Under the pieces are notes generated by a model. The model did not search any database. It had not been told where the DNA came from and saw only the letters and a program-made list of their open reading frames with translations. The position numbers and the translations under genes were made by a program. Shown in pieces: positions 2 through 49,922 of a DNA stretch of 64,000 bases; the first letter of the stretch is position 1, and the number at the start of each line of letters is the position of its first letter. Origin of the DNA: a virus (taxonomy: Duplodnaviria > Caudoviricetes); the IMG/VR virus record IMGVR_UViG_3300020408_000005, positions 6,502-70,501 of that record; one strand, written 5' to 3'.

Positions 2-514
2 TCTCTTTGCGTGCCTTACAGCGTCACAAAATACTATCAAATATTTTTGTACTACTGAATAAAAATCATCTCTCGCTTTTTGATCTTTTAATCTAGCAAA
101 TTTACAATGCTGCGAGAAAACATCCTCTGCCCATATAGGTAAAGGTCTCTTGTCTTTAAATTTAAACTTCTCACTTATTACTGATAGTTTAGAATTGAGA
201 TCCACTCCGTGTACAGGAGACACATCGACAATAGCAGCAGTAATAGTTGAAGGCGTTTGGATAATGTCACAACCAAAAATAGGTAAACGATATTCTGGAT
301 CTGGATAAAGAACACAATGTATAATTTCTATTTTGTCTGTGTTTGCTCTTTCAATATGGAGTTTTCTAAGTCCTTTGCATTTCCACATCTCATTGCGTAT
401 AGTCACTTTTTCGTGTTCTATGACACTATGATCTGACTCAATAACTGTGAGGTCAGGCAAGTCACTAATATTCCTGCGGATAAGATCCGCTAACTCATCA
501 CAAAGATTTGTCAC
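2..514 (-). CDS. pcyA: Phycocyanobilin:ferredoxin oxidoreductase, 3'-truncated by the window edge (not in ORF track)
   Basis: Manual translation from GTG at 514 gives MTNLCDELADLIRR...RNEMWKCKGLRKLHIERANTDKIEIIHCVLYPDPEYRLPIFGCDIIQ...AAIVDVSPV...RPLPIWAEDVFSQHCKFARL. It matches the ferredoxin-dependent bilin reductase motifs with the PcyA-type H-x-E, His (HCV) and Asp (FGCD) residues. Confidence 0.9.
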   Translation of the reverse strand, partial: MTNLCDELADLIRRNISDLPDLTVIESDHSVIEHEKVTIRNEMWKCKGLRKLHIERANTDKIEIIHCVLYPDPEYRLPIFGCDIIQTPSTITAAIVDVSPVHGVDLNSKLSVISEKFKFKDKRPLPIWAEDVFSQHCKFARLKDQKARDDFYSVVQKYLIVFCDAVRHAKR

Positions 515-978: not shown

Positions 979-1078
979 CGTTCATCTCCATAAATGCCAT
1001 CCTTAGTATATAGACGATATACCAAGTAACTATTACAACAAGTATTCCTACCATCCAGATAACACCCCAAACAACCAT
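905..1078 (-). CDS. Small single-pass membrane protein, 57 aa (not in ORF track)
   Basis: ATG is coupled to the upstream stop (TAATG at 1080-1076); MVVWGVIWMVGILVVIVTWYIVYILRMAF is a hydrophobic helix; the 3' end overlaps the nuclease gene. Confidence 0.5.
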   Translation of the reverse strand: MVVWGVIWMVGILVVIVTWYIVYILRMAFMEMNDGSNGSTKQEELLQLPSDGNKPSS

Positions 1079-1695
1079 TAGTTCTTATTGTGTACTATTG
1101 TATGGTTTCCATACCACTGTCCGTGTAATGGAAAGTCTCCTGTTTTATTTACCTTCACATTAAATCCTATTGAATATTTTTGATCTCTTGAATAGTTCTG
1201 TGTAGTAGAATGTTCCAACCAAGATGGAAATAATATCAAAGTATCAGGAAATGTTTCTACTGCCATCTCTTGATAAGTAGCAAAACAACTCATTCTTGCT
1301 TGTACAAGTGGACTATGAAAATTAATTAATCCTTGTTCTGGACTTGTCTTATGATAATAACATCCTGACAACTCAAATCCTGGGTGCATATGTTGATTCT
1401 GATTAGCACCTGTTGGGTATATATTTAACCAAGACTCAGGTATATTCCAATTATCGTGACCGACATATTTAATAACACACTCTGCAATATATGATTCTAA
1501 ATTTGGCATTTCATATGCACGAAAAAAATCCCTCCAATGATCTTGCTTGGAAGGATCATCACCGAAGTGAAGAATTAATTGTTCTTTCTCTTGTACATCA
1601 CTAATAACTTTTTCAAGTTCATCCCTTATCTCAGAGTCATCGTGTCTGAATCTTAGAACTGTGGATGGAAATAAATCAATAACGTCAGGTTGCAT
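1078..1695 (-). CDS. 2OG-Fe(II) oxygenase, TIGR02466-like
   Basis: SWLNIY...QHMHP...LSGCYY...LILFPSWLEHS...KYSIGFN, with HxH...H iron ligands. Confidence 0.85.
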   Translation of the reverse strand: MQPDVIDLFPSTVLRFRHDDSEIRDELEKVISDVQEKEQLILHFGDDPSKQDHWRDFFRAYEMPNLESYIAECVIKYVGHDNWNIPESWLNIYPTGANQNQHMHPGFELSGCYYHKTSPEQGLINFHSPLVQARMSCFATYQEMAVETFPDTLILFPSWLEHSTTQNYSRDQKYSIGFNVKVNKTGDFPLHGQWYGNHTIVHNKN

Positions 1696-21474: not shown

Positions 21475-21477
21475 TTT

Positions 21478-23013: not shown

Positions 23014-23035
23014 TGGATACTATGTACCTTCCTTT

Positions 23036-23043
23036 TATTTATA
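23036..23043 (-). promoter_or_regulatory. T4 late promoter TATAAATA
   Basis: Exact consensus upstream of gp8. Confidence 0.8.
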
Positions 23044-23048
23044 GTAGT

Positions 23049-26599: not shown

Positions 26600-26623
26600 A
26601 GTAGGGGGTTTTTTCTACAGTTT

Positions 26624-26631
26624 TATTTATG
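26624..26631 (-). promoter_or_regulatory. Late promoter-like CATAAATA
   Basis: ATAAATA core about 25 nt upstream of the ATG at 26599. Confidence 0.55.
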
Positions 26632-27994
26632 TCATATCAAAAGATTCTGACGTATTATCCAGAAAAACATCTTGTCTAGTAAAATCAGGATTGTTATTGT
26701 CCCGATCAAATGTAACTGGAGTCATATCGTACTTTCCAATACCAGTATCAAATTTAAGGATAGTGGAATAATCTATAGACGTTCCAGAACCTGTTACAGT
26801 AAGGATCGCCAGATTGCTTATTAAGGGTGAGTTTTGTGCCTGAGTAGATGCACCAACTGGACCAGTCAATACACATCTATAACGATAACCAGTCATAAAT
26901 GGTTGAGCATTTATTGTTAACGTTGCTGATGTATCACCAGTCAAATTAGACCAAGCAAATCCACCGTCTGTTGATACTTGCCACTGATATGCAATAGTAT
27001 CATTTTGTGGTTGTATCTCTGCCAACAAACTAAACTGTTGTGTGTTACCACTTTGAACAGTAGCATTTGTTGGTTGAAGTGTTATTACAATACTAGGGGG
27101 TTGAGAAGGAGTATCGCCACCATCATCAGTAGGTGGTGCAGTTTGTGTGAAACCATCATTAGCGGGTACTACCATTGCCTCTTTCGAGGTCAAACCCATC
27201 ATAAAAGGAAATACTGGATTTCCAGAATTATCTTCAGTAAGAAAGTATGCAAAAGTACCACTAGGATACTCAGGTGTTACACAATATCTACCATTATGTG
27301 TGTCTAACTTACCTGTTCCACCAGTATATTCATAATCTTCCATAAACACACCTGCGGGGTATGTTGTATCATATACAGGTCTTCCAGGTGCTTCTTGGAC
27401 TCTCACTGTCCATCCAGAAGACATTCTGATTACAGGTGTAGTGTTATCATTAGCATCTGTATATCCGTAAGGACCATATACAGGATAACCATCAAAACTA
27501 TAACCTATTATTTTAGAATGACCATCAGGGTGTCTAATATTATCACCATTATATTGAGATGAACCATAGTAATCATTATATCCTGCCATCACTTGATTGG
27601 CATTCCAACAATCTATGAAGTCGCTGTCGTTATAACTGTACTGACCACTTGACTGAGGATAACCACCACAACTATCTTCTCCATAATTAACAGCAGAACC
27701 AATACCCGCTGCCACGTAGGAAAAACCCGACGGGGGAGACCCATCAGTTCCTGCACTAGGATTAAAGAAGACGACACCGTTTGCAGCAATACCAATAGCA
27801 CCCAAACCGACAACCCCAGAATTAGACGTGTTTGATCCACCTCTGTAAACAAAGTTGTGGTTGAAAGAATATGATGTAATTGTGTTTGAATTGTTAGCAT
27901 TAGGAAAAGTTCCTGAGTTCACTGGAGTTGGTAAACCATCACCAGTTACTGTTAGGACATTATTGCTACTATTATAGGATCCATTTGCTGCCAT
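26627..27994 (-). CDS. YHYH-family-like virion protein with C-terminal Ig-like domain
   Basis: GAIGIAANGVVFFN, HSKIIGYSFDGYPVYGPYG, LDTHNGRYCVTPEYP.GTFAYF; Ig-like ITLQP...YQWQ...YRCV. Confidence 0.8.
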   Translation of the reverse strand: MAANGSYNSSNNVLTVTGDGLPTPVNSGTFPNANNSNTITSYSFNHNFVYRGGSNTSNSGVVGLGAIGIAANGVVFFNPSAGTDGSPPSGFSYVAAGIGSAVNYGEDSCGGYPQSSGQYSYNDSDFIDCWNANQVMAGYNDYYGSSQYNGDNIRHPDGHSKIIGYSFDGYPVYGPYGYTDANDNTTPVIRMSSGWTVRVQEAPGRPVYDTTYPAGVFMEDYEYTGGTGKLDTHNGRYCVTPEYPSGTFAYFLTEDNSGNPVFPFMMGLTSKEAMVVPANDGFTQTAPPTDDGGDTPSQPPSIVITLQPTNATVQSGNTQQFSLLAEIQPQNDTIAYQWQVSTDGGFAWSNLTGDTSATLTINAQPFMTGYRYRCVLTGPVGASTQAQNSPLISNLAILTVTGSGTSIDYSTILKFDTGIGKYDMTPVTFDRDNNNPDFTRQDVFLDNTSESFDMT

Positions 27995-27999
27995 AGTAG

Positions 28000-28007
28000 T
28001 ATTTAGT
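28000..28007 (-). promoter_or_regulatory. Late promoter-like ACTAAATA
   Basis: TAAATA core overlapping the gp7 stop, immediately upstream of the ATG at 27994. Confidence 0.4.
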
Positions 28008-31000
28008 CGTCGTCGAAGATTTGTGTAGGTGTGAAGTTGTCAACCGTTGTTGCACCGATGTTGACGGTAAGAACAGCAGCAGTTGATAGAACAGGGATTG
28101 CACCGTTAGATGTGATACCAACACGATATTCATCATTTGTATCTGCCTGTGTAGTTCCAGGAGTTTCGTATGTAGCACTGGTTGCTCCACTGATATTATT
28201 CCAACTATTTGTTCCATAATCTTTCTTCTGCCACTGATATGAAAGAGTTCCGTTATTAACGTTAACTGCTGAACCCATATATGGATGATTGCCACATACG
28301 TAATTAAGAGTAGCAGGAGCATCTGATGCAACTGTGATGCTGACACTACGTGTTGTAGCAGCAGCAAATCCTGCTGCGTATGTTGCATAATCTGCAACTT
28401 GATTTCCATTAAGACGATATACAACACCAGTCTCATATCTTTCAGTTCCACCGTATGCGTCTGCATTCTCACTGAAGTAAATTGCGTGAGTAGTATTAGA
28501 TGCGTCATTTTGATTGAACTGATAAGTTGCTCCACGAACAAATGTAAGTGTTGGTGCTTCAGTATTTTGTGTAAACTGACCTCCTGTGAGGTAGTATCCT
28601 TTACCAGATCCTTGATTGTAGTAAGGATGATTTACAGATTTACTATCAACTAAAACTGAGTAAGCAACAACATTAGATATTGTTACTGTTGCTGCAACTT
28701 GGAAGATAGCAGTTTGACCTTGGTTAACAGTAATATTTCTAGGTGCTTCAGTGATTGTTATAAAGTTCTCAATAACTCCTGTTCCACCAGTCTCAGGTAT
28801 AAAGTTAGGATCGTAAATATCAATACCACCATTTAATGCAGGTCCTGTAGGTCCTAAGAAATCATCTGCAACAGTTGTGTTTGCAGTAATTGCAGGTAAT
28901 GTATAACCTTGACCTGCGTTCTTAACATCAATCCTTGCAACACCGACAAGTGCTTTAATACGTCCACCAAATCCTGTTGAAGATATAACATCAACTTGTG
29001 GTCTTGTACTATAACCATCACCAGAGTTTGTTAATATCGCATTAGTAATACGTCCCTTCTCAATCTCAGCAAGTGCAGAAGCATTACGTCCTTTAACTGC
29101 TCCACCGTACTCAAATGTAATTAGAGAGTTAGATGATTCAATAAGAGCAACTGTTCTTGTTTCTTCTTCACCATCAATTCTAAGTTCATCACCTGCTTCA
29201 ATAGGTGGTACAACTGTTGCTGCGATAACGTCAACATCAGAACCAACATAAGAGAATGCAACGAAGGTTGAACCTGCACGAGGAACTTCAGAGAAGATAA
29301 TTCTAGAACCAACAATTTCAAAACCAATTCCAGGTTCCTGTATAACACCATTTAACTGGCATATAATATTATTCTCAGGTAAGATTGTATTTGACTGTAC
29401 ACCATCAGTTAGAGTCAATGAGTAGAATACTCCATTTAACTTCAAGTTGAATGAGTTACGTAATGAGTCAAAGTCGAATGATATATCATCTAATTGTCTT
29501 AACTTACCTTTATATACACCGTGGAATGTTGATCCTATAGCAGGTGCTTCAGTAAATTGTATATTATCTGAGAATGCAGTAAATGCGTAATCAGCACCAG
29601 GTGGTTGTAAGATACCATTTACAAAGATCATCATATGTCCTGCGGGATCTGGGAAGTATTGTGTACCATTTCCTTGAGTTAGTTTGAATGCTTTTTGTAC
29701 ACCATCAAATCCTCTAAAGAATCTACGTACTCTACCTCTCAATGATCTAGCAGATGAACAAGCACCTCTGAAACCATTATCTCCAATAATTTGTGAGTTC
29801 TTCTGGAATGTTCCTTGTGTTCCTTCTAGATGTAAAACAGCACGAGTACCAAACTGTGTAATCTTAGCAATCTTACCATATGCAGTTGTATCTGTTATTG
29901 TGACTGCACCAATAGTTGTATATACAGATGGGAATAGAGTTCCGACTGGTACTTTTGCTAATTGATATTGTGTATTACTTGCAATATCGCTTATTGTCAC
30001 ACCTTCTGGAGTTCCAGTTTCATTTGCAACAAATACATAATTGGTGTTTGTATCAATCTCAGTAACAGTCACTGTCCAACCAATACTAATACCACCAGAT
30101 TGAATTTGTAACACGTCACCAACGTTAAATGTATCACTAACTCCAGTATCAGTAATTAATGCAGTATATGTAAGTCTTGTAATTTGCCTACCGTGTACAT
30201 ATTCACCGAAGTTAGGTAATGTAACGAACGATTCAATCTCAATAATTTGATCAGTAACAGATCCATAGATAACGTCTTGGGGTTTAAACTCTCCAGTTAC
30301 TGTGGAGATGTCGTAAGTGATTCTACCACTCTGATTATCAATTAGAGCACCATTATTGTTTCTAACAATCAAGGCAGTTGCTTTAGATCCAGTATCTTTA
30401 GAGAAAAACTTATCAGTTGCAATAAATTCACCCTGACGGAAGTTAACAAGAATCCTATCGTGCTCGCCAACATATGTACAGGTACCACCAGATGTAACAC
30501 CTTCAATAATGTCACCTGCTGTAAATGTTCCATTATAATCAATTAGTTTAATATATGTCTCGTTATCGGTAGCAAGAACTTTACCAGTATTTGATGTAGC
30601 ACCTTGAACAACAACCATCTCACCATTCTGAATCTTAATACCAGTTCCACCACCTTGTGCAGAGAATGTATTACAGGTCATATACTTTGCCTGATACATA
30701 ACGTCTGCTAAATTATCTTCCATACGAACTATCTGAGCAGTAGCACCAGAGGTTCCACCATAGATAACATCAGCAAGGTTGAAACCTGCTTTGATTGGTG
30801 TTGGTACATCACGTGTTCCAAAAGTTGTAGGTACACGATCTACACCTGGATCTACACTAACAACAAGTGTATGTAATTGTGATGGAGTTCCTGGAGTTAG
30901 AACTATTGGTTCTCCATCAATGTATTCTGTAAGAACTATTTGAGTAGGTGTTGAATTAGGATGGATATAGTAAACTGATCCGTCTAGTTCTGCAATATTA

Positions 31001-34000
31001 GATCCAAGAACAATATACTCAACTCTGTCATATGGTTCAAAGTTATTAGCAACGTTTATAACTCCATTAGAAACAGCAACACCTGCATCAAACTGTGTTC
31101 TTAAGTATGTTGTTGGGAATTCTGAGTATTGTAATGCAACTAATATTAAATGGAATAGTTGATATAACTTATGGCAAGCAGTTGCAGTAGGACGTAATTC
31201 TCTATCAGGATTAGTTCCATCAATAGTGTAAAGAGGTTGGTTAGCAAATGTGCCAGGTTCGGGAGCAGTTCCTTTCAATATATGATCCATCAAGTCTCTA
31301 ATCATCCTTGCGTGATAAAGAAGACGAGTTCTGAATAAGTTTGGATATGCTACGAAATTGCCATCAGCGTCAAACCAAGAATTGATGAGTTGCAGTGTTC
31401 TAGCATTACCATTTGTAATGAAATCATATACAATCGCTTTCTGTATTGGTTCAGCAAACGAAGCATCTCCTGCATAACCTGGATATTGACTTAATGTACT
31501 TTCATATGATTCTAATCTAGTATATGTGTCATTGTACATTAACAATCTTGCAGATTGCTTATACATCTCTGTACCACTTCCAAGACCGTGAAGAAGTATT
31601 TTGAATAGTACGTGTGCAGCAGATGTAACATCGTAACAAGTTCCACCTTTATATACAGTGTTAGTAGTAACAGGTGCAGTTCTAGTTATAGTTGCAAGAT
31701 GACTTCCATTACCCGCTGCTGCTGTGGTAATAGTATTAATAAGTATCTCCCAAAGGGTATTAATGGCAGAACTCTGTGTGGTGCAGTTTCCGTTACCTGC
31801 TGAGTCGTAAGTTATAGTTATGTCACGTCTAATAGCACGTTCACCTGTAAGTGGCCATTCTAGTGGTAGTGTTCTTGTTATACCAGTTAAGTATGCTGTA
31901 GGATTGCTTGTATTTGAACTATCAAAGAGATTAATAGGAATACCCATCAATGAAGCGATAGATGCTGCTTCGTTTACACAACGTGTTTGAGCACCACCTG
32001 TATATACAGATACTGCATTTGCCTGAGCACTTACGAATGAGTGAGCGTAGTTACCTGCTGTTGTAGTTCCTACAAATACTGTAAATGTATTTGTGGTTGT
32101 AGCAGTAATCGGTAAGTTTGCATTTGCAGCAGGGTCTGTGATACGAGGGTAACTATGATTTGTAGCACCACCATCCATAGTGCAAGTAAATACAAGACTA
32201 TTTGTTTTGATTCTAATGCTGTCATTTGTTGTAAATGTATGTCCATTAGATGTAATTCGTAAGTTACCTGATGTTGGGAAATATTCTACATTTGTAGGAG
32301 TTATAGTTGTATTACCAGAACTTTGATCAACGGTAATTGTTCCGTCATATACAGCATTACCTTCAGTTACACCATTTGTAGTAATAATTTCCTGTCTCAT
32401 TACTTGAGTAGCAATATCTCTTGCTTCTTGGAAGATATATTTAACTTCTGCTGCTTGGTTGCTGATATGTTGTATAGCATTACCAACTGTGATGTAGAAC
32501 TCACTTGAATACCACATACGGTTGTTACCACCGTGTTTTAAGTTAAAGACTAATGCTTCAAGTAAATCTACAACGTCATCAACACAAGACTGATAATCAT
32601 AACCACCAGAGAATGCCAATCCTGGGTATTGTGACATACCACGACCAACAGCGGTTGTAGCAATAAATCTTATATTATTCTCAATCTCATTTGCAGCATC
32701 ATAGTAACCATTAGTTGTAGCATTTTCATAATAATCATCTCTTGGTGCTGCTTGTCCTAATCCACCTGTTACTCCTTCATCCTCATAGGGAGTAAACCCT
32801 AAACGGTTTCTGATGGCGAGTATGCACATATCACGTGCTAACTTAAAGGCATAAGTTGTTTCATCAGATTGAGCAGTTACGTGACTTAATCCCAAGTCTG
32901 AATTCAAATATAATGCAGCAGCATCATATGATTCACTATTACCACCAAATCTTAAATCGTGTGCTATAGATTCGATAATATCAACAATATCATCTTCACA
33001 ATTAACCTTACCACCTGGAACTCTGAAACCTTTAGATTGTGCAAAAGATGTCTTAGTTAAAATATCAACTGCTTCACCCGCAATAGTTTTAGCATTCTGT
33101 ACTAAAAGATTAGCAGCATCAAGATCTCTATCAGATCCTGTATATGCTTTAGGATCTATTGTAATAGTCTCATCACGATATACAGGTTCATCTGTGTATA
33201 ACATCTGATAGTAATCAGAGAAATCAAGAGCAACTTGAGCAGGGTTCTCATTTCTACCAATCAATAAACCTTGTATTGCTTTTTGTGCTAACTTCTTAGC
33301 ATATTCAATCGCATCAATCATCGCAAGCAATTCATCTTCAATATAATTGATGTTAGTCTCATTATCGAGATAACTATCAATCATTGCTTGAGTTTCAAAG
33401 TTACCACCTGTAACTAAGTCACCTGCAATGGCAGGAAGTATATGATCTCTAATATCTCTTACACATTTTGCTCTATTAGGTATTGTTAGTTTATTTACTG
33501 TTGAGAAACCAACTTGTATTTGATATTTGTTCTCAATGTAGAATACTGATTCATCAGCGATTGCTTTTCTATTAAAGTAAATTAAATCAGCACCATCTCT
33601 AAATCTATGACCTGTAGGTCCGATAACATCTAGTAGATCATCTACAAGAGTCATAATATCATCTTGTATTGTTTGAGATGCAGGAGATGAGAAGTAATTA
33701 GGAACACGAACCTTAGTTGAGTATGTTCCTTCTAAATTTGTCTCATCTAATGTAATTACATCAATACAAAGTTTTGCAACTTCTCTCCAAGTATAGATTG
33801 ATTGTAATTGCTCACCACCAATATGTTGTAAGGCACCAGATCCTTCAATGTAAGCACGACCAACAATAGTTGTTTGGAAGTTACCACCTGATATAAGGTC
33901 ATCAATAATAGCAGGTATAATATATGATTTTGTATCTCGTAAACAAACATTTGATCCATAACCACTCATACCACCATCACCAGGGATTACGAAATCAGGG

Positions 34001-37000
34001 TATCTATATTTAAGACGACCAACTGCTTCTTCAGCGATGTAATCAATATTTTTCTTTATTATATCAGCACACAATCTATATTCTTCACGACTTAGATCAA
34101 CACCTTCAGTAGTAAGTTCAGAACGCCATAATTCAACTTCATCAGCGTTAGCAGTAGATATTATGTGATTAACGTATGTTGCATATACTGCACTCTTCTC
34201 CATAGGGAATGGTGCTTCGCCAAGAAGTGCGAATGATACGTTTGTACTATCGTTGAAGATAATAGGGGGAGTAAAACTACTATTGTACTGGGAGATTCCT
34301 TTGTAGATTACAAGATTATCAATCCAACCATTGAAAGGATTACCATTATTCCATCCTGCACCAACAGTGATCTTACTATTTGCGTTGTAATTATTTGTAT
34401 CAGTATATGTGCCAACCTCTGAACCATTTACATATAATTTAGTGACACTTGTAGAACGAGATACTGCAATATGATACCAAGTATTGATTGTAGTAATAGC
34501 AGAACTAGCAGTAATTACATCACTTGCTCCAATGGATAAACGAAGTGACTGACCAGACATTAATATACCTAGTTTAGCATCAGATGAAGATTCTCTAAGG
34601 TCAATAAGTCTCTGTACACCAGTAACTGAAGCAGGACGTATCCATAACTCCATTGTATAGTCACCATTAGCAGCATCTGCTCCATCACCAAATAACACAG
34701 CGTTACTTGATGGGAAAGTAACATATGAACCAGATCCAGTAAATCTTAGTGAACCAGTATCAGTTTTAAATGTTAATTTATCTTGAGATACGTTTGCATA
34801 TGTAAGTTTAGAGTTGGTTATTAATTCACCTGCTTGTAATACGCCACTGATTTGTTTTGAGAAGATCCACTTGTTACCTGCATTAGATCCTATGACATCA
34901 TATGTTGCACCAGATGTAATTGCTCTTATAGTATCACCAAATCCAAATTGTCCACCACTTGATTTGTCTTGGTAGGCGTGTTTTGCACAACGTAAAGTCT
35001 CACCATCTACAAAAGCGTAAGGAGGAAGAACACGAGGTACATTAGTAATTGACCATTGATATGTTGCAGGATCTCCACCTGTAGGATCTTCTAGAGTATC
35101 AGTAATGATTCTCATAAAGGATGTTATAGCGTTTGCCTGATTAACACAACTATTAGTGTATCCCGCATATGCAGCAGAAGGTGCAGTCTCAGTTACTGCT
35201 GCTTCAAATGCTGCTACTGTTCCTGGAGATGCAGTTGATCCAAGATTAGTAATCAAAATATTCATTAATGTAGTAATTGCTGATGCAACTGCCTGACAAG
35301 TTGGATTTGCAGGATCAGCAGTTATTGTTAGATCTTTTACTTGATTCCAGTTATGAGATCCTGCTTTAGTCCAAGTATTGTTTCTCATTACCTCAATGGC
35401 AATATCTCTTGCCTTAGTAAAAGCATTTACAATAGTATCTCTATCACCAGATGTTACACCATACTGTAGAGTTTTCTTAGTTGCTTTATAAACAAAGTTA
35501 TTACCACCGTGTGCTAAGTTATAAACCATCGCTTCAAGAACATCAACAATATCAGATAAACAATGAACATCTCCACCTGATACGTTATATCCTGGATTTT
35601 GTGTTTTAGCATAATGTAATGCTTCATATGCAATAAACCATTTATTAGCAAGAATTAGATCTCTTGCGTCACCGTGACTATTGCTTATAACAGCAAACTC
35701 TGCGGTAATAGTAGGATCTCTGTATTGTGGTAAATTTGTTGTATTAGTATTAATTACTTCATTACGAATACACTGAATTGCTAAATCACGTGCTTTATTA
35801 AAGGCATAAATTGTTTGTGCAACTTCACCATCAACGTGATATATTGCATTACCTTGTACATATGTGTTAGCAGCATCCCAGATTTCTGAGTTGCCATCAA
35901 CTTCTAATTGATATGCAACGATATTTAAAATATCTACAATATCATCTTCACAATCTCTATCTCCACCTAATGATGGTACTGTAAATGATGGATAGAATGC
36001 TTTCATCAATCCAACTGCTTCTTCAGCAATGAATCTATCATTCTTTCTTATTAAAACAGCAGCATCAAATGAACGTTGATCGTCTACACCTACTAATGAA
36101 GCATTATCATAGTAGATTTGTTTATTACGTATTGAGTCACCTGCTGCAAATTGTGATCCTGACAGATAATTATACCTAATTTCTTGGTTTCTTACCTCTT
36201 CAAAGTCTAAGAAGTCTTGGTTATTAGCAGTTCCTGCCTCATATAATTCTTCTGGATTGATAACTGTCTCAGAAATATTGTCTAAGATAGTATTTGGATA
36301 TGTAATTGAAGGAACACGTTGGAAAATAAGACCAAAGAATGATGATGGAGGTGATAAATCAACAGTATCAATGATTTGTTGTGATACATCGTCTGTGTAT
36401 GGTGCAATTACAGTAACTCTTGCAGCAATTTTAGATGCAGCAGAGTAAATTGTATCATTAAATCTGATATTAAATTCACCAGTTTCAAATGCAGCAGTAC
36501 CAGATGTACGAGAAACAACTAAATTAGCATCTACAACACCATCTCTAAGGTTATTTTCTTCAATAATTGCAAAATCACCTTGTAAATTTGTAATTCTTTC
36601 ACCTTGCTCATATATTGTCTTACTTGTTATACCATTTACAGCACTTAATACACCATCAAATCCAGTAGATGATGCTAAAACATTGTCATTTATTTGGAAA
36701 CTACCATTCTGATCAATAATATCGATATAATCTACACCAGTATCAATAACAGTTGCAGTTCCTTCATTCTGTAAAGATCTTACAGTCTTACCTGTTGTTG
36801 GGAAAATACCAGATGTTGTACTAAATGTAAATCTTGTGATATTAATTTGAGAGAATGTAAGATTTCTAAACTTAATTCTTGAAGGTGCTTTAGGTGGTTC
36901 AGAAAATACGACAGATGGACCAGATGTTGTGAATGCAGTTCCAGGAGATTGAGCAACACCATTAATAAGAATTAATAATTGATCATCAGTTGCAGTTACA

Positions 37001-40000
37001 GATTCACCTTCCACTGTTAATGCAAATTGTGTCTTAATTCCATTGAAATCAGTTTCAATATTATCTAATTTTTTAACAATAGAAGTTAAGATTTCTTCAG
37101 AGTTAGTAAGTCTTCTTTGTCTGAATAATACTTCAGTGTTATTAAACTCTGTATATATTGGTTGTGAGTTAGCAAAAGAAGTGATTTGATTAATATTAGT
37201 AGCACTAAAGATATTAACTTCTTTAACAAGATCGGATACAACTTTTCTTCCAGATATATCTTTACCTGCTGCAAGTGCCAGTTCACCAAACATATTAAAT
37301 CCAACTGGATGGTTAGTTTCTAAAATACTCTTTCTCCAGTCATTAATAGGAGTTTGTGATTTAATCACATAAGAGAAATTCTGATAGAAGTAACTATCTT
37401 GAATTTTTTGAACAATCTCAGATGGTTTACCAACATCATCAATAAACTGACCAGTGGTAGTTGTCATTGAGTCAATATTCAATGTACCACGAGCAATCGA
37501 TAAGTTATCAATTAAACCAGATGCACGAGATACCTGTGCAGTAACACGCTCTCCAGTTGTCCAAGTTCCAGTGTAATTTTCTAACTTAAGGATTCTAGGT
37601 CCAATCTGCCAACCTTCATTTTCTGATACATATCCTATTGCAGTTGCTGTTTCTAAAGATAAACCTTGATATACGAGTTCTCCTCTTAAGAAACGTGATG
37701 TCTCAACTATAGCAGTTGCTAAACCACCAAATACCTCGGTAAGAAGAATCTGACGACCATCACCTTGAGTTAAGAATGTAATAAAGTTACCAGACTCAGC
37801 ATCAACCTGTGTTAGTGCTATTCTAAGTTGATCTGCCTCAAGTGAATTTGCTTCACCTGCAATAGCATAGTAAGTAGTTGTAGAACTCAAACTAACCAAA
37901 CCTGCTGAACTTGGTTTTGGTAGAATACCAACTGTAGATCCTAAATCTTCTGCTCTAAGTTGAATAGCAGCACCAGTTGTAATACCGTGTGGGAAGTTAA
38001 ACTGTAGATAACCCAAGTCAAGGTTTACAACATAGTTAAATTCTGATTTAAGTGTAACTGTTGGTTCAGAAGAATATCCAGATCCAGGATTCTTAATTAA
38101 AACTTCAGAAAGTCTATTATTTTTGATAATTGCTTCTGCTTCAGCACCTGTTCCACCACCACCTTCAATGACAACTCTAGGAACAGATGTGTAACCAGAA
38201 CCAGGATTGGTAATCTTAATTTCAGATAAAAGAGCAGTATTGAATAGTTGTAAGTTAACTGGGAATGTAATCTCAGGTCTTAAGGTGTAATCGTGAGAAT
38301 AACCAAAACCAAATTCGTTATTTTTAAGTTTCTTAATCTTACCGATACTTGTACCTTGTAAGAATACAGATGCACCAGATCCTTCATTAGGAATTACAAC
38401 TTGTAAATCACCACCAGATCCTTGTAATAAAGATCCTAATATTCCTGGAATTTTATCAATATCAATAGATGCAGTAGTATATCCTTTACCTGGAGATGTT
38501 AATTCAACAGCAGTAATAACACCTGTCAACTCACCATCATCTGAAACTGTAATATTACATAGACCACCTTCACCATCTCCGTCAATAACAACATTATAGT
38601 AAATACCATTAATGTATTCTGTACCACCAGATATGATACGAATCTTCTCAATTTCTCTGTTAGATGCTATATCAGTAACAATAGGTAACTTCTGATAGAA
38701 TCCACCTGGATTTACCAGTTTGATATTTGAAATAGGACCGATTGCTTTAGTAGAAGTTGTGCTATAAGATGCTCTTGAAACTCCTGTTTCAGTTACTCCT
38801 AAAGGAGCATTTGTTTTTTCTGGTTCTACAAGAAGTGGGAATGTAAATTCGGTATCACTTACTATATTATTAATTCTAAATGTACCTTTGTAAGGTGTTT
38901 GTATAACGTCAATAAATGAGACAGGACCAACAGGTGAATTAGATGGAAGAGTTCTTGATGGATCAAAGTAATATGAAATATTAGTAACATCCTCATCAAC
39001 AATAAACTTAACAAGTGGTTTAGGTGATGTTTGATCAGTTAAACCTGGGATACCTTCTCTAACAATGTTTACAAAAGGATATTCCAATTTATATTGGTTA
39101 TCCTTAGAGAATGACATATAATATCCAAAGTTAGATGGATCGTCAAGGTCAAATATGTATTGATGTCCACGAACAAATAATAATTCTGGATGTTTAGCGT
39201 AAATATTAACGTTTGATACTGATGAACTTGCAAATGTAGGATCTTGTACAGCAGTTGATCTTAATCTATATGTAAATGTTCTAGTATCTAATACCTCTTC
39301 TATAAAGAATGATCCACCATATTCTGTAGTAGTAAATCCTTCTACAAATATAATTTCGTTTGCACTAAAATTGTGCTTACTATTAGATACACAGAATACT
39401 AAATCTGTAAATGTTAGTGGACCAGATGGTATTACATCTTTAGCAAGATTAGATGTAAGATGGAATTTCTTAACACCAACTAAACCTGCTATTGTTATAA
39501 TTTTACCAGTTGCATCAAATGTTGCAGATAAACCAACTGCCTGTGCATCAAGAGTATCACCCTTAATAAAGTTTGAATCTGAATATACTGCTTCAATTTT
39601 TATAATGTAATCTTCAGCAACAAATGGTTGCCAAGTAGCAAATTGTCCTAGATTGCCAGTAGAGAATGGAGTATTTGCTAAATCAACATCAAAACTACCT
39701 GCGTCACGAGTATATACCCAGTTAATATTACCATCAGTTACAGTACCAACTGTATGAACTGGAGCAGTAACACCAGAAACTGCTGTAGTTCCTGATGTGT
39801 AAATCTTCCCATCATTATAAACCTCATCACCAACTGTATAAGGATTATTTGTTACCCACTGAGGTATTGTTGTCTCAACTAAAAATGTTTGTGCTATTGT
39901 GTTTCTATCATTTGCACTAGATTTAAGTAATTTTGTAGTATCAAATGTACCGATAATATTACCAATATCAACGCTATCAGTTCCAACATTAACGATAGTA

Positions 40001-43000
40001 CCATATGCACTAACTACATCTTGACCACCAATTACAGAATACTGTTGTAGTAAAGATCCTTTTGTAAAAGATGCTGTCTGATTAAATGATACTGTCTTAA
40101 CAGTGTCTATTGACTGATATACTGCATCACGAATATAGAATTTGGGAATAACAGTTGTACTTAATAGAAGTTTTCTACCAAGAGGAGTTGGAATAGTAGC
40201 AGTTCTACTCTCATAAATTTGATCTGTAGATACAAATGAGTAAGTTCCTTCAACATTATTTGATACAACATCAGCATAATCAAGTATTTGTAGACCCGCA
40301 GGACCTAATGCCCAATCCCCAGAAGTAATCACTTGGGTATTAAACGTAAAGTCGTTCACAGCGGCTGCGACTGTTATCTGCATACCTGCTTCAACAGTGC
40401 TTAGTGTATATGTTCCAGTTTTAGTTTGTTCCCTGTCTAACTTGAAGCAGAATCCTGCTACCTTTTTATTAGAACCAACTGCCTGAGCAGGAGTAAATGT
40501 ATCTGTATATTTTGCAAGACCTGATACAGAAATATTATCTACCCAACCACCAATAGAAGTAGCAACAGCAGGAGATGATTTACCAAATAATAGTATAGAT
40601 TTAAGTTGTGTATCTATAGTTGTACTTGTTACATCAATTTGTTCAACACCATTGATGAATACTTTATAAACGTAAGTACCAACACCAGGAGTTGATTTAA
40701 CAAGAGCAACGTGTATAAATGCTTCGTTATTAAATGTTGACCAGTTAGTTGTGGATGTAGATAGGTAAGTATTAGAACCTAACTTTAAACGAACTTTACC
40801 AAAATCAGCACTTGTAGAATCACCTTCTAATTCTACAACTGCATTATCACCTGTAGTAGGAGTAACATCAAAAATATTTGGTGTAGAACTTTGAGCATTA
40901 TATTGTGCTTGCCCAATAGCAATCCACGCTTCAACTGTATAATTTGTTGCTACATCAGCACCCCAATCCAATGACAGTCTATTTGCAGCAGCACTTATAT
41001 TTGCTGACTGTGCACCATACTTCCATTTAGAAGTATCTAATGTAGGATCTACAGACCATCCTGCTGTTAAATTATTGTCATATGTATCATCTCCAGTTAT
41101 GGTTGATTCAAAGTTTAATATTGCCAATTCATTTGATTCAATCTTATCACCTGCAATTAAAGTATCACCAGAATTATCGTTTGTAATTGTAGTTGGATGG
41201 AAACCAATACCATTATTTTGTTTTAGTGATGAAGCATTTAGTATATTACTTGTATTCCAAGAAACTTTAAATATAATCGCTCTATGATCATTAAAAGCAT
41301 ATTTAACGTATGCACCAACATCAATATTACCAAATATATCAAATTGTACACCAGTTGCTTTAATATCTTCAAATGTTCCACTAGGGGCAAGCATTTTAAC
41401 TACTGAAGGTGTCTTATAATCAGTAGGTGCAAACTTCATATACAAAATACCCACATTCTTGGTATTTGATATTGAATATGCAGTAGCAGTTACATATCTA
41501 GAACCATAATCATCAATAGTAATCTTAGGATTGCTGAATCTATATGAAGTATTGCCAAACTGTCTACTCCACTGAACCTCAATAGTAGCAGTATCATAAA
41601 AAGTTTCACCAATTATTATTTCACCAGTTCCCGCAGGATCATTAACACCAACAAATATAGAAGTATTATTACTTGTAAATTTAAGATCAGTCATTTGTTC
41701 TGACCCTGCTGCTGTACAGATCTTACGTTTTTCTTTAATGGAACCGTCTGTATCTAACAGTGCAATCCACATATCATCTGGATTAGGTGAGTTAGTATCA
41801 GTTGTACCACCAATATAGATCTGACCATCAGAGTCAATAGTAAGAGATGAAATATAATCTCTTCTAGTAGAACCAGATATACCTGCTATTTCACGTTGCC
41901 ATACAGGAACAGCAGTAGGATTATTGAATCCATCAAAACCAGAGGTGTATTTGGCAACAACTAAATCTGGATTGTATGTAAGGTTTACATTATTGGGTAT
42001 TGTTTCACCAACAACGTAGATAGAATGTGGAGATGTATTTTCTAAGTAAATTCTGTTGAACACACAACGTTTGTCACCCGCAGCAGGTTGTAGTGGTGCC
42101 ATTGTTCTTGTCCACAATAATCTACCATCACTATTGAACTTAGCAATTAAACCTGCCGAATCACCATCAAGATCATCTGCTTCACCAACAACATAGAATG
42201 TTCTATCATCAGCAATAGCAATATCTCTAATTTTTACAATTTTTTCAACACCACTTGTATTTTCATTTAATAATGTAAGAGCATAATTTGCTTTTTTATA
42301 TCTTTGTGGATGAGAAACCCTAACTTCTGGAGGTGTTGATGCTGAATACTCAGATCCAGAGTTTATAATATTAACATTATTGACTGCACCAGACTCTTCT
42401 CTAACAAGTTCTAACTTAAAATCTTGACCAGTTCCACTAACAATTTCATAATTAGGTGGTATATCTTCATTGTAACCTAGACCTTGTTGACTTATAGTTA
42501 CTGTCTCAACACCCGATACAACTTTTACTCTATATGTTTTATTAGTTTGATCAATAATAGGAATACTATCAACAATAATTTCATCACCAACTCTTAAATC
42601 GTGCTCATCAGCGGTTGTAATTCTTCCCAATGGAGCATCATTCACCATAGATGATGTATATTGAGTAATATCAATACCTTTTACAGAATCAACTTTAGCA
42701 GATGCACCATATCCGCCAGTATCAGTGTTATCAAAGAATAACTTATCGTTAACTTTATATGATATACCTGGGTTTTCAACTACAAATCCACTAATCTTAG
42801 CATCTTCAAATTTAGTAGTAGTATCAATTTCAATATCAACCTGTGATCTTGTAGAAACTCTAGGGTAGTAATCAAATAATTGTAGTACAGGTTCTTCTGA
42901 GATATAATTTAACTCATCTTGCTCTAACTGTGATATGACACCATCACGGTTTGTATCTTCTATTTCAAATATAAACTCTTCTCCTAGTTCTGTTACAAGA

Positions 43001-46000
43001 GTATCTGTGTCTTGGTTAGGTGTACGATCAATATCAATATCAACATCTTCATATGGATCACGGAATCTAACAACATCAAGAGGAATATTTGTTTGCACAG
43101 CATCTTGACTGTAGTTCCAAGTATCAGGTTGTGAGTATAGTTGTGGACCACATACATATGGAAATACAGGTAAACCTGCTTCTGATGCGTCTATAGAAAC
43201 AAAGTAAGCGTAAGTACCTTCAGGATATTCAGGTGTTTTACAAAAACGTCCATTGTATTGGTCTAAATCACCTGCTTGGAAAACATACTCATAGTCTTCT
43301 ATGTAAGTTCCTGCGGGTTTGTCTGATAGTAAAGGTCCATCAACACGAACTGGATTTGGGTTAGTGGCAGAATCAAATAATAATATTGGTTTGATTCTGT
43401 AAGATGATACACATCTCTTAATACCAGATGATTGATCAGCAGCATCAATATAACCATATGGTCCGTATATTGGGTTTCCATCAAATGCCCAACCAATAAT
43501 AGGAGAATGTCTTAATCCAGATGATAGTTCTCTAAGAAGACCTGTTGAAGGATCTTTAAATACGTTATCACCAAGAACATAACGTAATTGTTTGGGATCT
43601 GATAGGTGAGCATATTCACCACCATATTGTGTATTATATCCTGCAAAAACATAACCACGAGCAGGGTCTACTAATCCTGATAGTTCAGTTTCTAAGTTTT
43701 GTGTCCACTCAAATACGTTTGCAGTAAATGATGCACCTTGACCTATAGATTCGCAACGAATAGTTGTAAGACCTGTTGTATATCCTATACCTCTGTTTTC
43801 TACAGATATACTTAATACTTTACCTTTATCTTCACCAAATGTTCCAATAGTTGCTTTTGCAACAGCACCATATCCATCTCCATTAATAATAATTTTAGGT
43901 GGAGAAGTATATCCATTACCAGATGCAATAATAGCAATAGAAACTATACGACCATTAATTATAATTGGTTGTGCAACTGCACCTTCACCAGAATTTAATT
44001 TAATATTTGGAGAAGATGTATAACTTGATCCTGCTGTATCTACGCTAATAGATTGAATAGGACCTCTTACCTCGGCAGTAGCAGTAGCACCTGTTCCATT
44101 GCCTCCTGAGATGCTTACAGTGGGTGCTGAGGTATATCCTTGACCAGGTGTCTCAACAAGTACTTTACTTACAACTCCGTTTGTAATAACAGCAGTCGCA
44201 GTAGCACCAAATCCACCTCCACCAACAATAGAAACTAAAGGAGATGCTGTATATCCAGAACCACCTGCTGTAACATCAACACTGAAGAGTGATCCATCTA
44301 CAATAACACTAGCAGAAGCACCTGATCCACCACCACCAGATATTTCAATAAGTGGTTTAGATGCAGCGTCATATCCTGTACCAGAATTTACAATATCAAC
44401 ACTTGTTATTCCACCAAACTTAGTCTTAGTTTGAGACTTATAAGACCAAACAGAAACACCATTTACCCAAGCACCAATAGGACCAAATGATAAATCATCA
44501 CGTCGTGATACAGTCTCTACAATTCTAGGAAATCTACTTAGTTTTCTTTGGTTTCCTGGGAGTAAAGCAGACCCAATGAACGGACCAACTTGATAGTTTG
44601 GAATACCTGTTGTAGCAACATAAGAGTAATTTGCGTTGAAGAACGTATTTTGTACATTGGTTGTAAACTGATTAATTGAGTTATTAATTGCTTCTTCTGT
44701 TGATTTACCTTTATTAAGGTCAACAGACATCAAGATATTACCTTGAGGTGCATTAGGTGCAGGGGCAGCAATCTGATATGAGAAAACAGTGTTACTTATA
44801 CGAGATGTTACAGCAAATGTACCGTTAAAGATTGTTGGGTTTGCACCGTATATTGTTACAGAGTCACCAACAAGAAGACCGTGGTTATTTGTAGTATATA
44901 CAGTTGCAGTTTGATTGTTAAGTCCACCTGGTTCAATATTTGTTACAGAGATTAATTTCTTAACATTATACAACCAAGATGTAATTCTTTGATCTGTAGA
45001 TGAAGATCCAAGAGATGCAACATTTAATTTATCACTAGGAAGATAATATGAACCAGTATCGGTAAGAACTGTTCCTGTTGCTTCAGCAATACCAAGAACA
45101 CGTAATTTTACTTCAGTATCTTGTCCTCTATTGATATAACAGAAAATATCAGAGTATATTGTTGTACCTGCATCCCAATCTTCTACAACACCGTTTTTAG
45201 AACGTGTACACTCAATAAACTGGTTTAATGATTTTTCTTTGTATTGTATTCTTTCGTTATCACCCATAATGATGATACCGTTCCTTTCTGGCCACCCAAT
45301 AGTAGAGTCAACAGTAATAATAGACTCGGTTTCTGTTAAAGGTTCTACAAGTGTTGTTTTATAAGGTATTGTAAATTTTCCTTCTAAAGTTTCTTCAGAT
45401 ATTGACAATTCATAGATTGTTCCAACACCAGTATTGATAGCAATAACGTTTTCAACCAAACAAACCGCATTTCCAACACTTGTATCTACATCATCTGCAT
45501 ATTGGAATAATTGAGAGTCTAATATATCAACAGGACTTCCACTTATCAATTCTACACGAATAATTGTATCAACAGACCAAGTTGCAGCAGATGGTTTAAT
45601 TAATTCATCTTTTGGATATGAAACATCAACATTTTCTGAAAATAAGACTTTAAATAAGTACTCTGTGGCAGTTTTTGTACCTTTAGACACATAGAAGTCT
45701 TTTATTGTCTTAATAATCTGTGGAGCATTGATTTTAGTGTAATCAATATCTGCATCAGGTAAGAACTGGTTTACAAAACGTTCATATAGTGTTCTAGAGA
45801 ATAAGGCATCAAGATTCTCAATAGTGCTTCCAATTTCGTGAGATGATTGAATACTTTGTGCTTCATTTGTAAATACTTGATTTCCCCTAATATCATATGA
45901 AGAAACACCTGATACACCTCTCTTACAATTTACAAATTGAGATGGTTGATACTCTGAACCGTGTGAGTGTACTGTAAAACCTGTAACTTCTTGGAATCCA

Positions 46001-47834: not shown

Positions 47835-49922
47835 TTAGAAGCAAGTGTCAAACTCAGGGTAATCAAATACCGTGGTTGGATAATCAATTATATTTATCGA
47901 GGTTCCGTCAAAGTTGATTGGAGTAAAATCTAACGGATCGAAGTTTGGAACGCTAGTTCCATCAATGGTGTAGTCTATAGTGATTACTTGTGGGTTGAAA
48001 ATAGTTGGATCTACACCAGTTCCTATATTTACATTACCACTATCTAGCAGAACTGTAACAGGAATACGTGATGTTCCATCAGGAGTGCTTGCTACGTTTA
48101 TAGGACCTAGACAAACTTCTCCAGTTTTATAATTAACAGTTCCAACACCAGACTTAAGAATAACTTCTTTTTCATCTAGTTTTGTAACCATTATTAATTC
48201 ACCTCTACCATTATCTCTCACATTCACTGGTAAAAGAGCACTTGTATCATTTTCTACAAATGTACTAATACTTAATACTGAATTTGTTGTTAACTGTTGA
48301 GATGATACAGCAAGATCTAATAACGCATCTGTGTAACCTGTAGAATAAAATGTTCCACTCTTTACAGCAGAAAATTTAGGACTACATACTGCCACACCAT
48401 CACTAGAATTACCAGAACCAATATCACCAGGATTTACAATAGCATTACCAAAATCTACACATTGAGTGAATGTAGAACCAAATGGGAATCCAGATACATT
48501 TAAACCAAGTGTCATTGTTGTCTGATTACCAACAATACTATTTTGAGATTGATCAATCATTGTTTGGAACGCAGATGTGTCAATCCTTCCATTAAATCTA
48601 TTTGCAGATCCTTGTGTATTAAAGTCATCAATAGCACCAAGAACTCTAGATGCCAATTCATTATTTGATAAGTTTGTTGATGTACCGTCAAAGAACACAT
48701 ATGTCTTAGGACGTATGTATAGAGTTGTAGGATCGATAATTACTGGTTCGATCGCTGCCATAGAATACTTCAATAAATCATTCTTGATACGTTTCTTGGT
48801 AGTAGCGTTTAACGCTGCACCAGATTTAGTTTTTACAGCAACAAATACTTTTCCATATACAGGTGGGTAGACTCTTTCTCCACCATAAGCAGTAACAGAC
48901 TTTGCTTGAGGATAAACCAGTTTAGTAACATACTCATAATCAGACTCCGTAACTGCTCTGTTTTGGGCACTGAATGCCCTTGGAGCGTTGTACTTGATAG
49001 ATATAACATCTTCTCCTGCTTCACCGTCCTGAGAGGCATCTACGGTTGCTATAGAGATGTTTGCAGCAGGTACATTGCGACCAGTATTATCTGTTACTCT
49101 ACCTATAAAAGTAAACTTCTTACAACCATTTGCTTCTGGTCCATTAGTTCTAACATATTTAAGTCTTATAACCTCACCTGCTATTAACTCTCTACCTATA
49201 ATACCATCACCAAATATTACAGTATATCTAAGATCATCCGTTTCTTCTAAGAAATAACCACGAGTTGTACCATCTACATTTACAATATTTGTAATTTGGT
49301 TGTAAGTATCTATTTCTTCACTTTGAGCATTAGGTGAAATAGACACATAAAGTAAGTCTGTATCTACATTGTCAACAGGAATCTCGTATTTTCTTTTTTT
49401 AACGTCAGTTACGTTGTACTCATACTCTAATAAATTACCTTGATATATTACTGTTTTATTAAATGTTGCAAGACCAGTCTGCTGATCTACCATAGAAGTG
49501 ATTGGTTGTGGAACTGTGAATGTATATGCTTGACCATCAACAGCAGATACAAATACATCGCCCGCAGGAATAGTTACGGTAGATGGATATGTTGTTCCTG
49601 ATCCAAGAAAACTTGTTTGCACTGCAAATGCAACACACGCTTTTGCTGCTTTTATTGATCTAGGTGTATAATTTAATTGTTTTGCTATCTTTACTACGTT
49701 GTCTCTTATTGTTGCCGACTCTAAAAATGCTTCATTCATCGCCATATTAGCGTTGAAAGCAGAATAATAAGTATTGTATGCTAATACGTCTAGAAGATAT
49801 GACGCAGCAGATCCATCAAAGTCGTAATCTGTAAATTCTGTTCTAGTTCTTAGATACGATTTGATGGATTCTTTTATCTCTCCAAAATCAAGAGATGTTA
49901 AATTTGATGGTATTGCGGGCAT
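47835..49922 (-). CDS. gp6: Baseplate wedge subunit gp6
   Basis: LDFGEIKESIKSYLR...FTDYDFDGS...LLDVLAYNTYY, AKQLNYTPRS, QNRAVTESDY, PPVYGKVF. Confidence 0.93.
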   Translation of the reverse strand: MPAIPSNLTSLDFGEIKESIKSYLRTRTEFTDYDFDGSAASYLLDVLAYNTYYSAFNANMAMNEAFLESATIRDNVVKIAKQLNYTPRSIKAAKACVAFAVQTSFLGSGTTYPSTVTIPAGDVFVSAVDGQAYTFTVPQPITSMVDQQTGLATFNKTVIYQGNLLEYEYNVTDVKKRKYEIPVDNVDTDLLYVSISPNAQSEEIDTYNQITNIVNVDGTTRGYFLEETDDLRYTVIFGDGIIGRELIAGEVIRLKYVRTNGPEANGCKKFTFIGRVTDNTGRNVPAANISIATVDASQDGEAGEDVISIKYNAPRAFSAQNRAVTESDYEYVTKLVYPQAKSVTAYGGERVYPPVYGKVFVAVKTKSGAALNATTKKRIKNDLLKYSMAAIEPVIIDPTTLYIRPKTYVFFDGTSTNLSNNELASRVLGAIDDFNTQGSANRFNGRIDTSAFQTMIDQSQNSIVGNQTTMTLGLNVSGFPFGSTFTQCVDFGNAIVNPGDIGSGNSSDGVAVCSPKFSAVKSGTFYSTGYTDALLDLAVSSQQLTTNSVLSISTFVENDTSALLPVNVRDNGRGELIMVTKLDEKEVILKSGVGTVNYKTGEVCLGPINVASTPDGTSRIPVTVLLDSGNVNIGTGVDPTIFNPQVITIDYTIDGTSVPNFDPLDFTPINFDGTSINIIDYPTTVFDYPEFDTCF

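Follow-up and report, generated by a model that had tools for sequence, protein, structure and literature searches.

The window analysed here, a stretch of 64,000 nucleotides (positions 6,502 to 70,501) of the IMG/VR viral record IMGVR_UViG_3300020408_000005, contains a giant open reading frame (ORF) of 6603 amino acids (28003..47814, minus strand, from the ORF list and its translation) in the gene position of the baseplate protein gp7. Within it lie six tandem helical repeats that are very probably homologous to phycobiliproteins and of their fold. The first-pass annotation of this DNA had proposed phycobiliprotein-fold domains with equivalents of Cys84 and Asp87 inside a virion protein, and this proposal is upheld by the Pfam family PF00502, by PDB searches, by a template-free AlphaFold model and by a CxRD motif present in more than 1000 copies of the repeat. 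We further infer, with confidence that stands about level, that the six repeats and one decayed copy are divergent phycobiliprotein-type bilin-binding-globin domains that take up bilin.

The repeat unit is helical and about 120-132 amino acids long and, at the level of the translation, the repeat pattern of the giant ORF is far beyond chance. A hidden Markov model (HMM) built from the six copies recovers all of them at E values of 1e-46 to 1e-56, and finds no copy in any other ORF of the window. The first cluster, placed by this HMM, is made of R1 (amino acids 3896-4025, 35740..36129; core DCEDD...DGN at 35890-35955, with Cys3955) and R2 (4032-4152, 35359..35721; core HCLSD...GGN at 35500-35565, with Cys4085). 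The second holds R3 (4565-4696, 33727..34122; core VCLRD...GGN at 33880-33948, with Cys4624), which is the copy closest to phycobiliproteins and is supported by the best PF00502 stretch, by phmmer and by an AlphaFold2 model, followed by three copies placed by the HMM and a model, namely R4 (4725-4856, 33247..33642; core KCVRD...GGN at 33400-33468, with Cys4784), R5 (4880-5010, 32785..33177; core NCEDD...GGN at 32938-33003, with Cys4939) and R6 (5025-5148, 32371..32742; core SCVDD...GGN at 32524-32589, with Cys5077). A degenerate seventh repeat without the Cys lies at amino acids ~5413-5517 (31267..31581; HMM E values of 5e-4 and 3e-5). All of these are on the minus strand, and the full CxRD is found only in R3 and R4 among the six.

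The first-pass annotation had described six repeats in two clusters, and all six cores occur verbatim in the translation, with a spacing of 130 amino acids between R1 and R2 and of 160, 155 and 138 from R3 to R6. The Cys and the Asp three residues downstream, which it had assigned to every copy, are indeed kept in 6/6, and the seventh, Cys-less copy to which it had pointed is the one matched by the HMM at E 5e-4 (31267-31581). Its flanking segments were also borne out in an alignment of 36 distinct repeats (window, six named cyanophages and one IMG/VR relative): the Cys is preceded by DAAxLIxxNxxxIAxEAV...YP...PGG and followed by an AxxxAxxL helix, N25 never varies, and I29, C60, D63 and G79-G80-N81 each reach at least 90% conservation. 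The separate Cys-headed short helices that it had likened to the beta-155 segment exist as well, with the pattern C-x3-A-x2-I-x2-L: C4173 and C4223 were read from the translation (35080..35322, minus), while C5279, C5344 and C5393, between R6 and the seventh copy (31585..32007, minus), are conserved in the orthologue alignment.

Kinship with the phycobiliproteins is found at the sequence level. The PF00502 profile matches amino acids 3900-5570 of the giant protein with 31.2 bits (cut-off 22.2, E 2.6e-7), its best stretch falling on R3 over profile positions 27-84, and amino acids 4501-6603 with 25.8 bits; two distant proteins of the family score 61.2 and 44.8 bits. When R3 was compared to PDB with phmmer, 33 of the 34 matches at E<=10 were phycobiliproteins or proteins engineered from them (smURFP, near-infrared fluorescent proteins), the best having an E value of 0.011 with CLRD aligned on CLRD, and a profile of six R3 orthologues reached ApcF at 4e-4. 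The profile of the 36 repeats gave 162 PDB matches at E<=10, the best 60 of which are all phycobiliproteins. Its top match is the Gloeobacter CpcA (2vjr_A, E 7.1e-8, 35.6 bits), and the alignment runs from helix B through the loop to helix E, with the Cys on Cys84, the Asp on Asp87 and GGN on GGT100-102. Single repeats also had weak Pfam matches to DUF2654 and HTH_44.

The fold was predicted with AlphaFold2 for R3 and its flanks, without templates and from a 135-row alignment of only window and IMG/VR repeats. The resulting model (mean predicted local distance difference test score, pLDDT, 79.6; predicted template modelling score, pTM, 0.75) has helices at positions 30-41, 43-57, 72-95 (with the Cys at position 77), 99-106 and 122-141, then an extra helix. 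In the Foldseek comparison with PDB, ranks 1-49 as listed are all phycobiliproteins (probability 1.0, TM 0.43-0.66). VIA-align, run against 48,161 representative chains, placed a phycoerythrin first (Z 13.7, root-mean-square deviation (rmsd) 2.7 over 143 residues), then allophycocyanin (Z 12.4), the bilin-binding domain of ApcE (4xxi_A, Z 12.0, rmsd 2.1) and whole ApcE chains (Z 10.7-11.7). Photocobilins and globin-coupled sensors came lower, with a Z of about 10, and ordinary globins lower still (6-8). In a model of R3-R6 as four domains (pLDDT 73.1, pTM 0.50) the A-B-E-F'-G helix pattern recurs four times; its pTM is too low for reliable inter-domain packing or for a claim of alpha/beta-like pairing. 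The AlphaFold and Foldseek check suggested by the first-pass annotation, run on R3, gave a globin-like model whose nearest solved structures are phycobiliproteins.

The repeats belong to a large family. The 135-row profile, compared to 1.84 billion proteins, matched 1451 cluster representatives at E<=1e-3 and 502 at E<=1e-30, the top members being giant proteins in which as many as 35 stretches were matched, or up to 34 repeats by HMM count. Across 1288 repeats of 159 distant family proteins the Cys is present in 1238, the Arg at +2 in 1190, the Asp at +3 in 1274 and a downstream Tyr in 1257, and the full CxRD in 1168, while outside the motif identity falls to about 20-25%. Among 303 unique repeats of closer relatives, Asn28 is found in all 303, the Cys in 273, the Asp in 288 and both together (C..D) in 273, and the middle residue depends on the position of the repeat (CxRD 130, CxDD 104, CxSD 22 and CxHD 16). 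Over 25 orthologues the C, R and D of R3 are invariant, as are the C and D of R4, where the R is kept in at least 90%. Neither the 36- nor the 303-repeat alignment has a conserved Cys partner for a disulfide within the unit. As judged from these alignments, the chromophore-site motif (the equivalents of Cys84, Asp87 and mostly Arg86, with the GGN turn) is under strong purifying selection.

Among annotated phage records, the repeats are confined to cyanophage tail and baseplate proteins. A tblastn search with R4-R6 matched 366 phage records (289 Synechococcus, 60 'Cyanophage', 16 Prochlorococcus and one 'Marine'), and one with a distant family member matched 251, in genes annotated as tail fibre, short tail fibre, tail protein or baseplate wedge initiator; the records of both searches are all of Synechococcus or Prochlorococcus phages, 'Cyanophage' or uncultured marine viruses. 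The first tblastn had also matched five Pseudomonas and two Acidovorax records, and one each of Erythrobacter, Variovorax, Alphaproteobacteria and 'Phage'; these matches are probably due to the laminin-G domain of the giant protein, because the query without that domain matched cyanophages only. The BFVD structures gave 20 matches at E<=1e-3, none of which bears a phycobiliprotein label; those with a name come from Synechococcus phages (structural or tail proteins) or from uncultured Caudovirales. Compared to 185,579 species genomes, the R3 alignment found five loci, on contigs labelled Legionellales, Methanobacteriota, Flavobacteriales (two) and Nonlabens, which are likely binned or contaminating phage contigs rather than cellular genes. 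The Nonlabens locus is a 188-kb contig of an isolate assembly. One family cluster carries the label of a Nanopelagicaceae metagenome-assembled genome, which is probably mis-binned because its contigs are only 2-5 kb long. We also observed metagenomic proteins of 4800-6400 amino acids that are made of 30-34 tandem phycobiliprotein-like repeats with CxRD.

The closest known relatives are the phycobiliprotein subunits of PF00502 (ApcA/ApcD/ApcF, CpcA/B, CpeA/B), which share with the repeats a globin-like A-B-E-F'-G core, helix B, loop and helix E in register, the Cys84, the Asp87, the Arg86 (in R3 and R4), the GGN/GGT turn and the Asn of helix B. The repeats differ from them in being shorter (about 130 against 160-175 amino acids, at an identity of about 10-20%), in missing the X-Y hairpin and mostly helix H, in missing the Arg of the phycobiliprotein CXRD in 4/6 window copies, and in being tandem domains of a 6603-residue virion protein rather than free alpha/beta subunits of the phycobilisome. 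ApcE, the core-membrane linker (LCM), resembles the giant ORF in carrying a phycobiliprotein-type domain within a large multidomain protein; it differs in being cellular, in having one such domain, in belonging to the phycobilisome core and in using an attachment Cys other than that of position 84. It attaches its bilin autocatalytically (PMC2327270) and is therefore a precedent for lyase-free loading. CXRD is described as the phycobiliprotein chromophore-binding motif, in which the Cys forms the thioether and the Arg and Asp contact the bilin (Rockwell et al., PMC10151467). The bilin biosynthesis-associated globins (BBAGs) BBAG-1 and BBAG-3 carry it and self-assemble with several bilins without lyases (PMC10151467). 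The BBAGs and the photoglobins/photocobilins are non-antenna members of the bilin-binding globin clade, as we propose for the repeats, and the photocobilin globin domains align with the R3 model at Z 8.9-10.4. These globins are, however, cellular and have a single domain; they are found in heterotrophic bacteria and in some cyanobacteria, tied to gene clusters for ferredoxin-dependent bilin reductase (FDBR) and haem oxygenase (HO), whereas the repeats are modules of a phage virion. In the literature searched, which did not extend to subscription journals or bioRxiv supplements, and in passages of PMC10151467, PMC11480375, PMC2984593 and PMC10452541, we found no description of phycobiliprotein-type domains in phage virion proteins.

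In regards to a source of chromophore, the start of the window holds the N-terminal 171 amino acids of pcyA, encoding phycocyanobilin:ferredoxin oxidoreductase (2..514, minus, running off the window start; PF05996 162.3 bits, NF002760 213.3 bits against a cut-off of 206). It lies about 27 kb from the giant gene and is not adjacent to it; it is a possible chromophore source. Co-occurrence with bilin-handling genes was evaluated in 17 T4-like cyanomyoviruses picked regardless of repeats, of which 14 have them (3-16 matches each) and P-SSM2, S-SM2 and S-SSM7 have none; for P-SSM2 a full six-frame hmmsearch gave a best E value of 0.6. CpeT (PF06206) is present in 12/14 phages with repeats and in 0/3 without (Fisher p 0.015, uncorrected for phylogeny). 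In S-PM2, S-RSM4 and Syn1, which represent three genera, a giant 'short tail fiber' gene (T4-like GC 734, 3779-4482 amino acids) that carries several repeats is preceded on its own strand by a full-length cpeT, whose end lies about 0.7-1.45 kb upstream of it. The shared order is hypothetical GC730, cpeT, small ORFs/tRNAs, the giant 'short tail fiber' gene and gp12 (S-PM2 161500-178500, S-RSM4 161000-179500, Syn1 17500-34500).

Some side observations were made on the same genes. A 2OG-Fe(II) oxygenase gene (1078..1695, minus) is two genes from pcyA in the window, and in S-PM2 and Syn1 one (T4-like GC 104) separates cpeT from the fibre gene with the repeats. In P-SSM4 (NC_006884.2, 16642-17064) two stretches of a 148-amino-acid ORF match CpeT (PF06206; 37.4 and 22.9 bits); a 2010 review gives cpeT as not found in this phage (PMC2984593). 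Short CpeT-like ORFs of 134-160 amino acids, or 224 in Syn9, occur in most of the 17 phages. The RefSeq record of S-PM2 (NC_006820.1) has 16 tRNA features inside the coding sequence of the giant tail fibre under one locus tag, which looks like an annotation coordinate error.

According to the explanation that we favour, each unit would be a five-helix A-B-E-F'-G core of about 130 amino acids, arranged in tandem in the gp7-position baseplate protein, and the competent domains would take up a linear tetrapyrrole (phycocyanobilin or phycoerythrobilin) in the B/E/F' cleft during assembly in the infected cyanobacterium, to be fixed via a thioether to the conserved Cys. R3 and R4 have the CxRD, and the CxxD copies R1, R2, R5 and R6 may be competent or not. 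Either the host or the phage PcyA could supply the pigment, and attachment could be self-catalysed, as in ApcE and the BBAGs, or performed by a lyase, be it the phage CpeT or a host enzyme of CpcS type. The baseplate and fibres of the virion would then contain biliprotein modules, most likely as a light-responsive element in host recognition. Covalent bilin binding by the repeats is plausible but unproven, and could as easily be false as true.

Several observations go against this explanation, some touching the kinship itself and others the pigment. R3 taken singly scores 18.4 and 17.5 bits with PF00502, under the cut-off of 22.2, and R1, R2, R4, R5 and R6 singly have no match to it at E<=10, so the above-cut-off score of the giant protein is a sum over repeats. 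Foldseek found nothing in PDB for the R3 model at E<=1e-3 (best 2.2e-3), VIA-align may give helical models a Z of about 14 without kinship, and a feature search of the ESM Atlas with R3 returned only epimerase-like clusters (<=0.90), which was taken as uninformative. The structural match carries weight mainly because it agrees with the sequence result. If the likeness were convergent or due to chance and the repeats an unrelated helical bundle, such marginal single-repeat scores, Foldseek E values of only about 1e-3 to 1e-2 and a high Z reached by chance could be accounted for; we nevertheless regard this as very improbable, given a profile E value of 7e-8 for an alignment of about 65 columns in which the motifs coincide, PF00502 scores above the cut-off here and of 61 bits in relatives, and two structure aligners that independently put phycobiliproteins first. 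An alternative that keeps the globin-like pocket and fills it with another ligand, such as haem or a host surface molecule, would make the repeats receptor-binding or sensing modules unrelated to light. The giant protein does belong to the host-recognition apparatus, and in the structural ranking haem globin sensors (Z about 10) and photocobilins (Z 10.4) come next. This seems improbable nonetheless: the best 60 of the 162 PDB profile matches are all phycobiliproteins, with no haem globins, there is no proximal-His-like column among those conserved at 80% or more, and the conserved motif is that of bilin binding, CXRD (PMC10151467).

As for the pigment, the models have nothing helical ahead of helix A and so no X-Y hairpin, helix H is absent in R4-R6, only R3 being followed by an extra helix, and the pocket may be incomplete because of these losses. 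The Arg is missing from R1, R2, R5 and R6 (CEDD, CLSD, CEDD and CVDD) and, among close relatives, from 57% of repeats. CpeT is absent from S-ShM2 and P-SSM7, both of which have repeats. FDBR is found in 5/14 repeat-bearing phages and in 2/3 of the others, HO in 2/14 and 2/3, respectively, neither being positively linked to the repeats, and P-SSM2 has both enzymes and no repeats; the simple rule that phage bilin-synthesis genes exist to feed the repeats was rejected on this account. The cpeT synteny concerns only 3/12 cpeT-positive phages, and the gene order shared by S-PM2, S-RSM4 and Syn1 may be simply inherited. T-type lyases are described as serving the Cys-153/155 site and not Cys-84 (PMC10452541), sites of the Cys-84 type being served by CpcS-type lyases or by autocatalysis as in ApcE (PMC2327270). 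These points leave room for a pigment-free version of the same origin and fold, in which a host phycobiliprotein gene was captured and exapted as a compact helical 'bead' from which long baseplate and fibre proteins are built, the Cys, Arg, Asp and GGN would be kept for folding or inter-domain contacts, and the cyanophage-only distribution would merely reflect the source of the gene. Tandem arrays of up to 34 copies in giant tail-fibre proteins are typical of structural spacers, and the shortness of the domains compared with phycobiliproteins, the loss of the Arg from many gp7-type copies and of the Cys from the seventh, and the failure of FDBR and HO genes to co-occur with the repeats all fit with it. 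We know of no report of coloured virions, for which no specific search was made; with six copies of gp7 per baseplate, as in T4, a particle would have only tens of chromophores, so that an absence of visible colour would say little. This version is a real possibility, which we entertain tentatively, but it leaves unexplained why 96% of the Cys, 92% of the Arg and 99% of the Asp are retained at chromophore-contact positions (n=1288) while the domain drifts, why the Cys has no conserved disulfide partner in the unit, and why cpeT co-occurs with the repeats and shares its gene order.

Bilin-loaded repeats could bear on the light-dependent adsorption of some cyanophages, which is described as unexplained and, in S-PM2, as independent of photosynthesis (Liu et al., PMC6628666). 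According to that paper, P-HM1 and P-HM2 do not adsorb in the dark and S-PM2 adsorbs in a light-dependent way, and these phages have 6, 6 and 13 repeat matches, respectively; P-SSM2 adsorbs in the dark, though less, as do P-SSP7 and P-GSP1, and these three have 0. The presence of repeats thereby agrees with light-dependent adsorption in 6/6 phages with published phenotypes, but this is a lead and not a test, since P-HM1 and P-HM2 belong to a single species, the two podoviruses differ from the others in all further respects and the comparison was post hoc. A light-sensing role of the repeats in adsorption is an attractive minority reading that we consider unlikely. The fuller form, in which cyanomyovirus particles would carry their own biliprotein photoreceptor, CpeT would load or chaperone the modules and light would switch the fibres or baseplate to an adsorption-competent state, is likewise doubtful. 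If true, it would account for the light-dependent adsorption of S-PM2 and P-HM1/2 and would give the phage cpeT a viral rather than a host substrate.

The setting of the giant ORF makes it a putative baseplate protein of the gp7 type. The record is a 70.5-kb viral sequence estimated to be 40% complete, and the window carries the structural module of a T4-like cyanophage, with genes for the small terminase, tail sheath stabilizer, head closure, gp6-like and gp8/gp10-like baseplate wedge and a PAAR protein, and with several giant structural ORFs. The gp6-like gene (47835..49922, phrog_219) has the giant ORF directly downstream, which is the gp7 position. The giant ORF matches PHROG 701 'virion structural protein', and its amino acids 1245-1837 match phrog_2885 'baseplate wedge subunit' (E 1e-244); the Pfam Baseplate_wedge score is 16.7 bits against a cut-off of 27. 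Its orthologues in S-WAM1 and S-SZBM1 are labelled 'baseplate wedge initiator', and the labels over S-WAM1, S-SZBM1, P-RSM6, P-TIM40, S-RIM2 and Syn9 are this one, 'virion structural protein' or 'structural protein; putative fiber'. The putative likeness to T4 gp7, the baseplate wedge initiator, lies in the gene position after gp6 and in the PHROG matches. T4 gp7 has about 1030 amino acids, and the giant ORF is about six times as long; we know of no T4 counterpart of its phycobiliprotein-like, laminin-G and YHYH modules. The Laminin_G_3/concanavalin-like domain (PF13385, 78.3 bits, E 8.6e-22; amino acids ~4362-4505, 34300..34731, minus) sits between the clusters R1-R2 and R3-R6. The YHYH domain (PF14240, 109.6 bits) is at amino acids 1396-1542 (43189..43629, minus), with a second copy-like match, via shared PHROGs, in the adjoining 455-amino-acid ORF. 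A beta-rich module with the motif SLxFTCxxDxxxxxHxYPRxxDP occurs once in the giant ORF (amino acids ~5195-5235, ~32110..32232, minus) and in several tandem copies in orthologues; a metal site is suggested by the Cys and His conserved in it.

The known phycobiliprotein-type domains are antenna subunits, the linker domain of ApcE and, more recently, the BBAGs, and none is known in a virus particle. The phycobiliprotein-like repeats recur commonly as modules of baseplate and tail-fibre proteins in cyanomyoviruses and, even if pigment-free, form a large unannotated domain family. In that case they would still represent a host photosynthesis gene exapted as virion architecture. If the repeats bind bilin, the virus particle may carry a light-absorbing pigment, and both the cause of light-dependent, photosynthesis-independent adsorption and the role of the phage cpeT would become testable.

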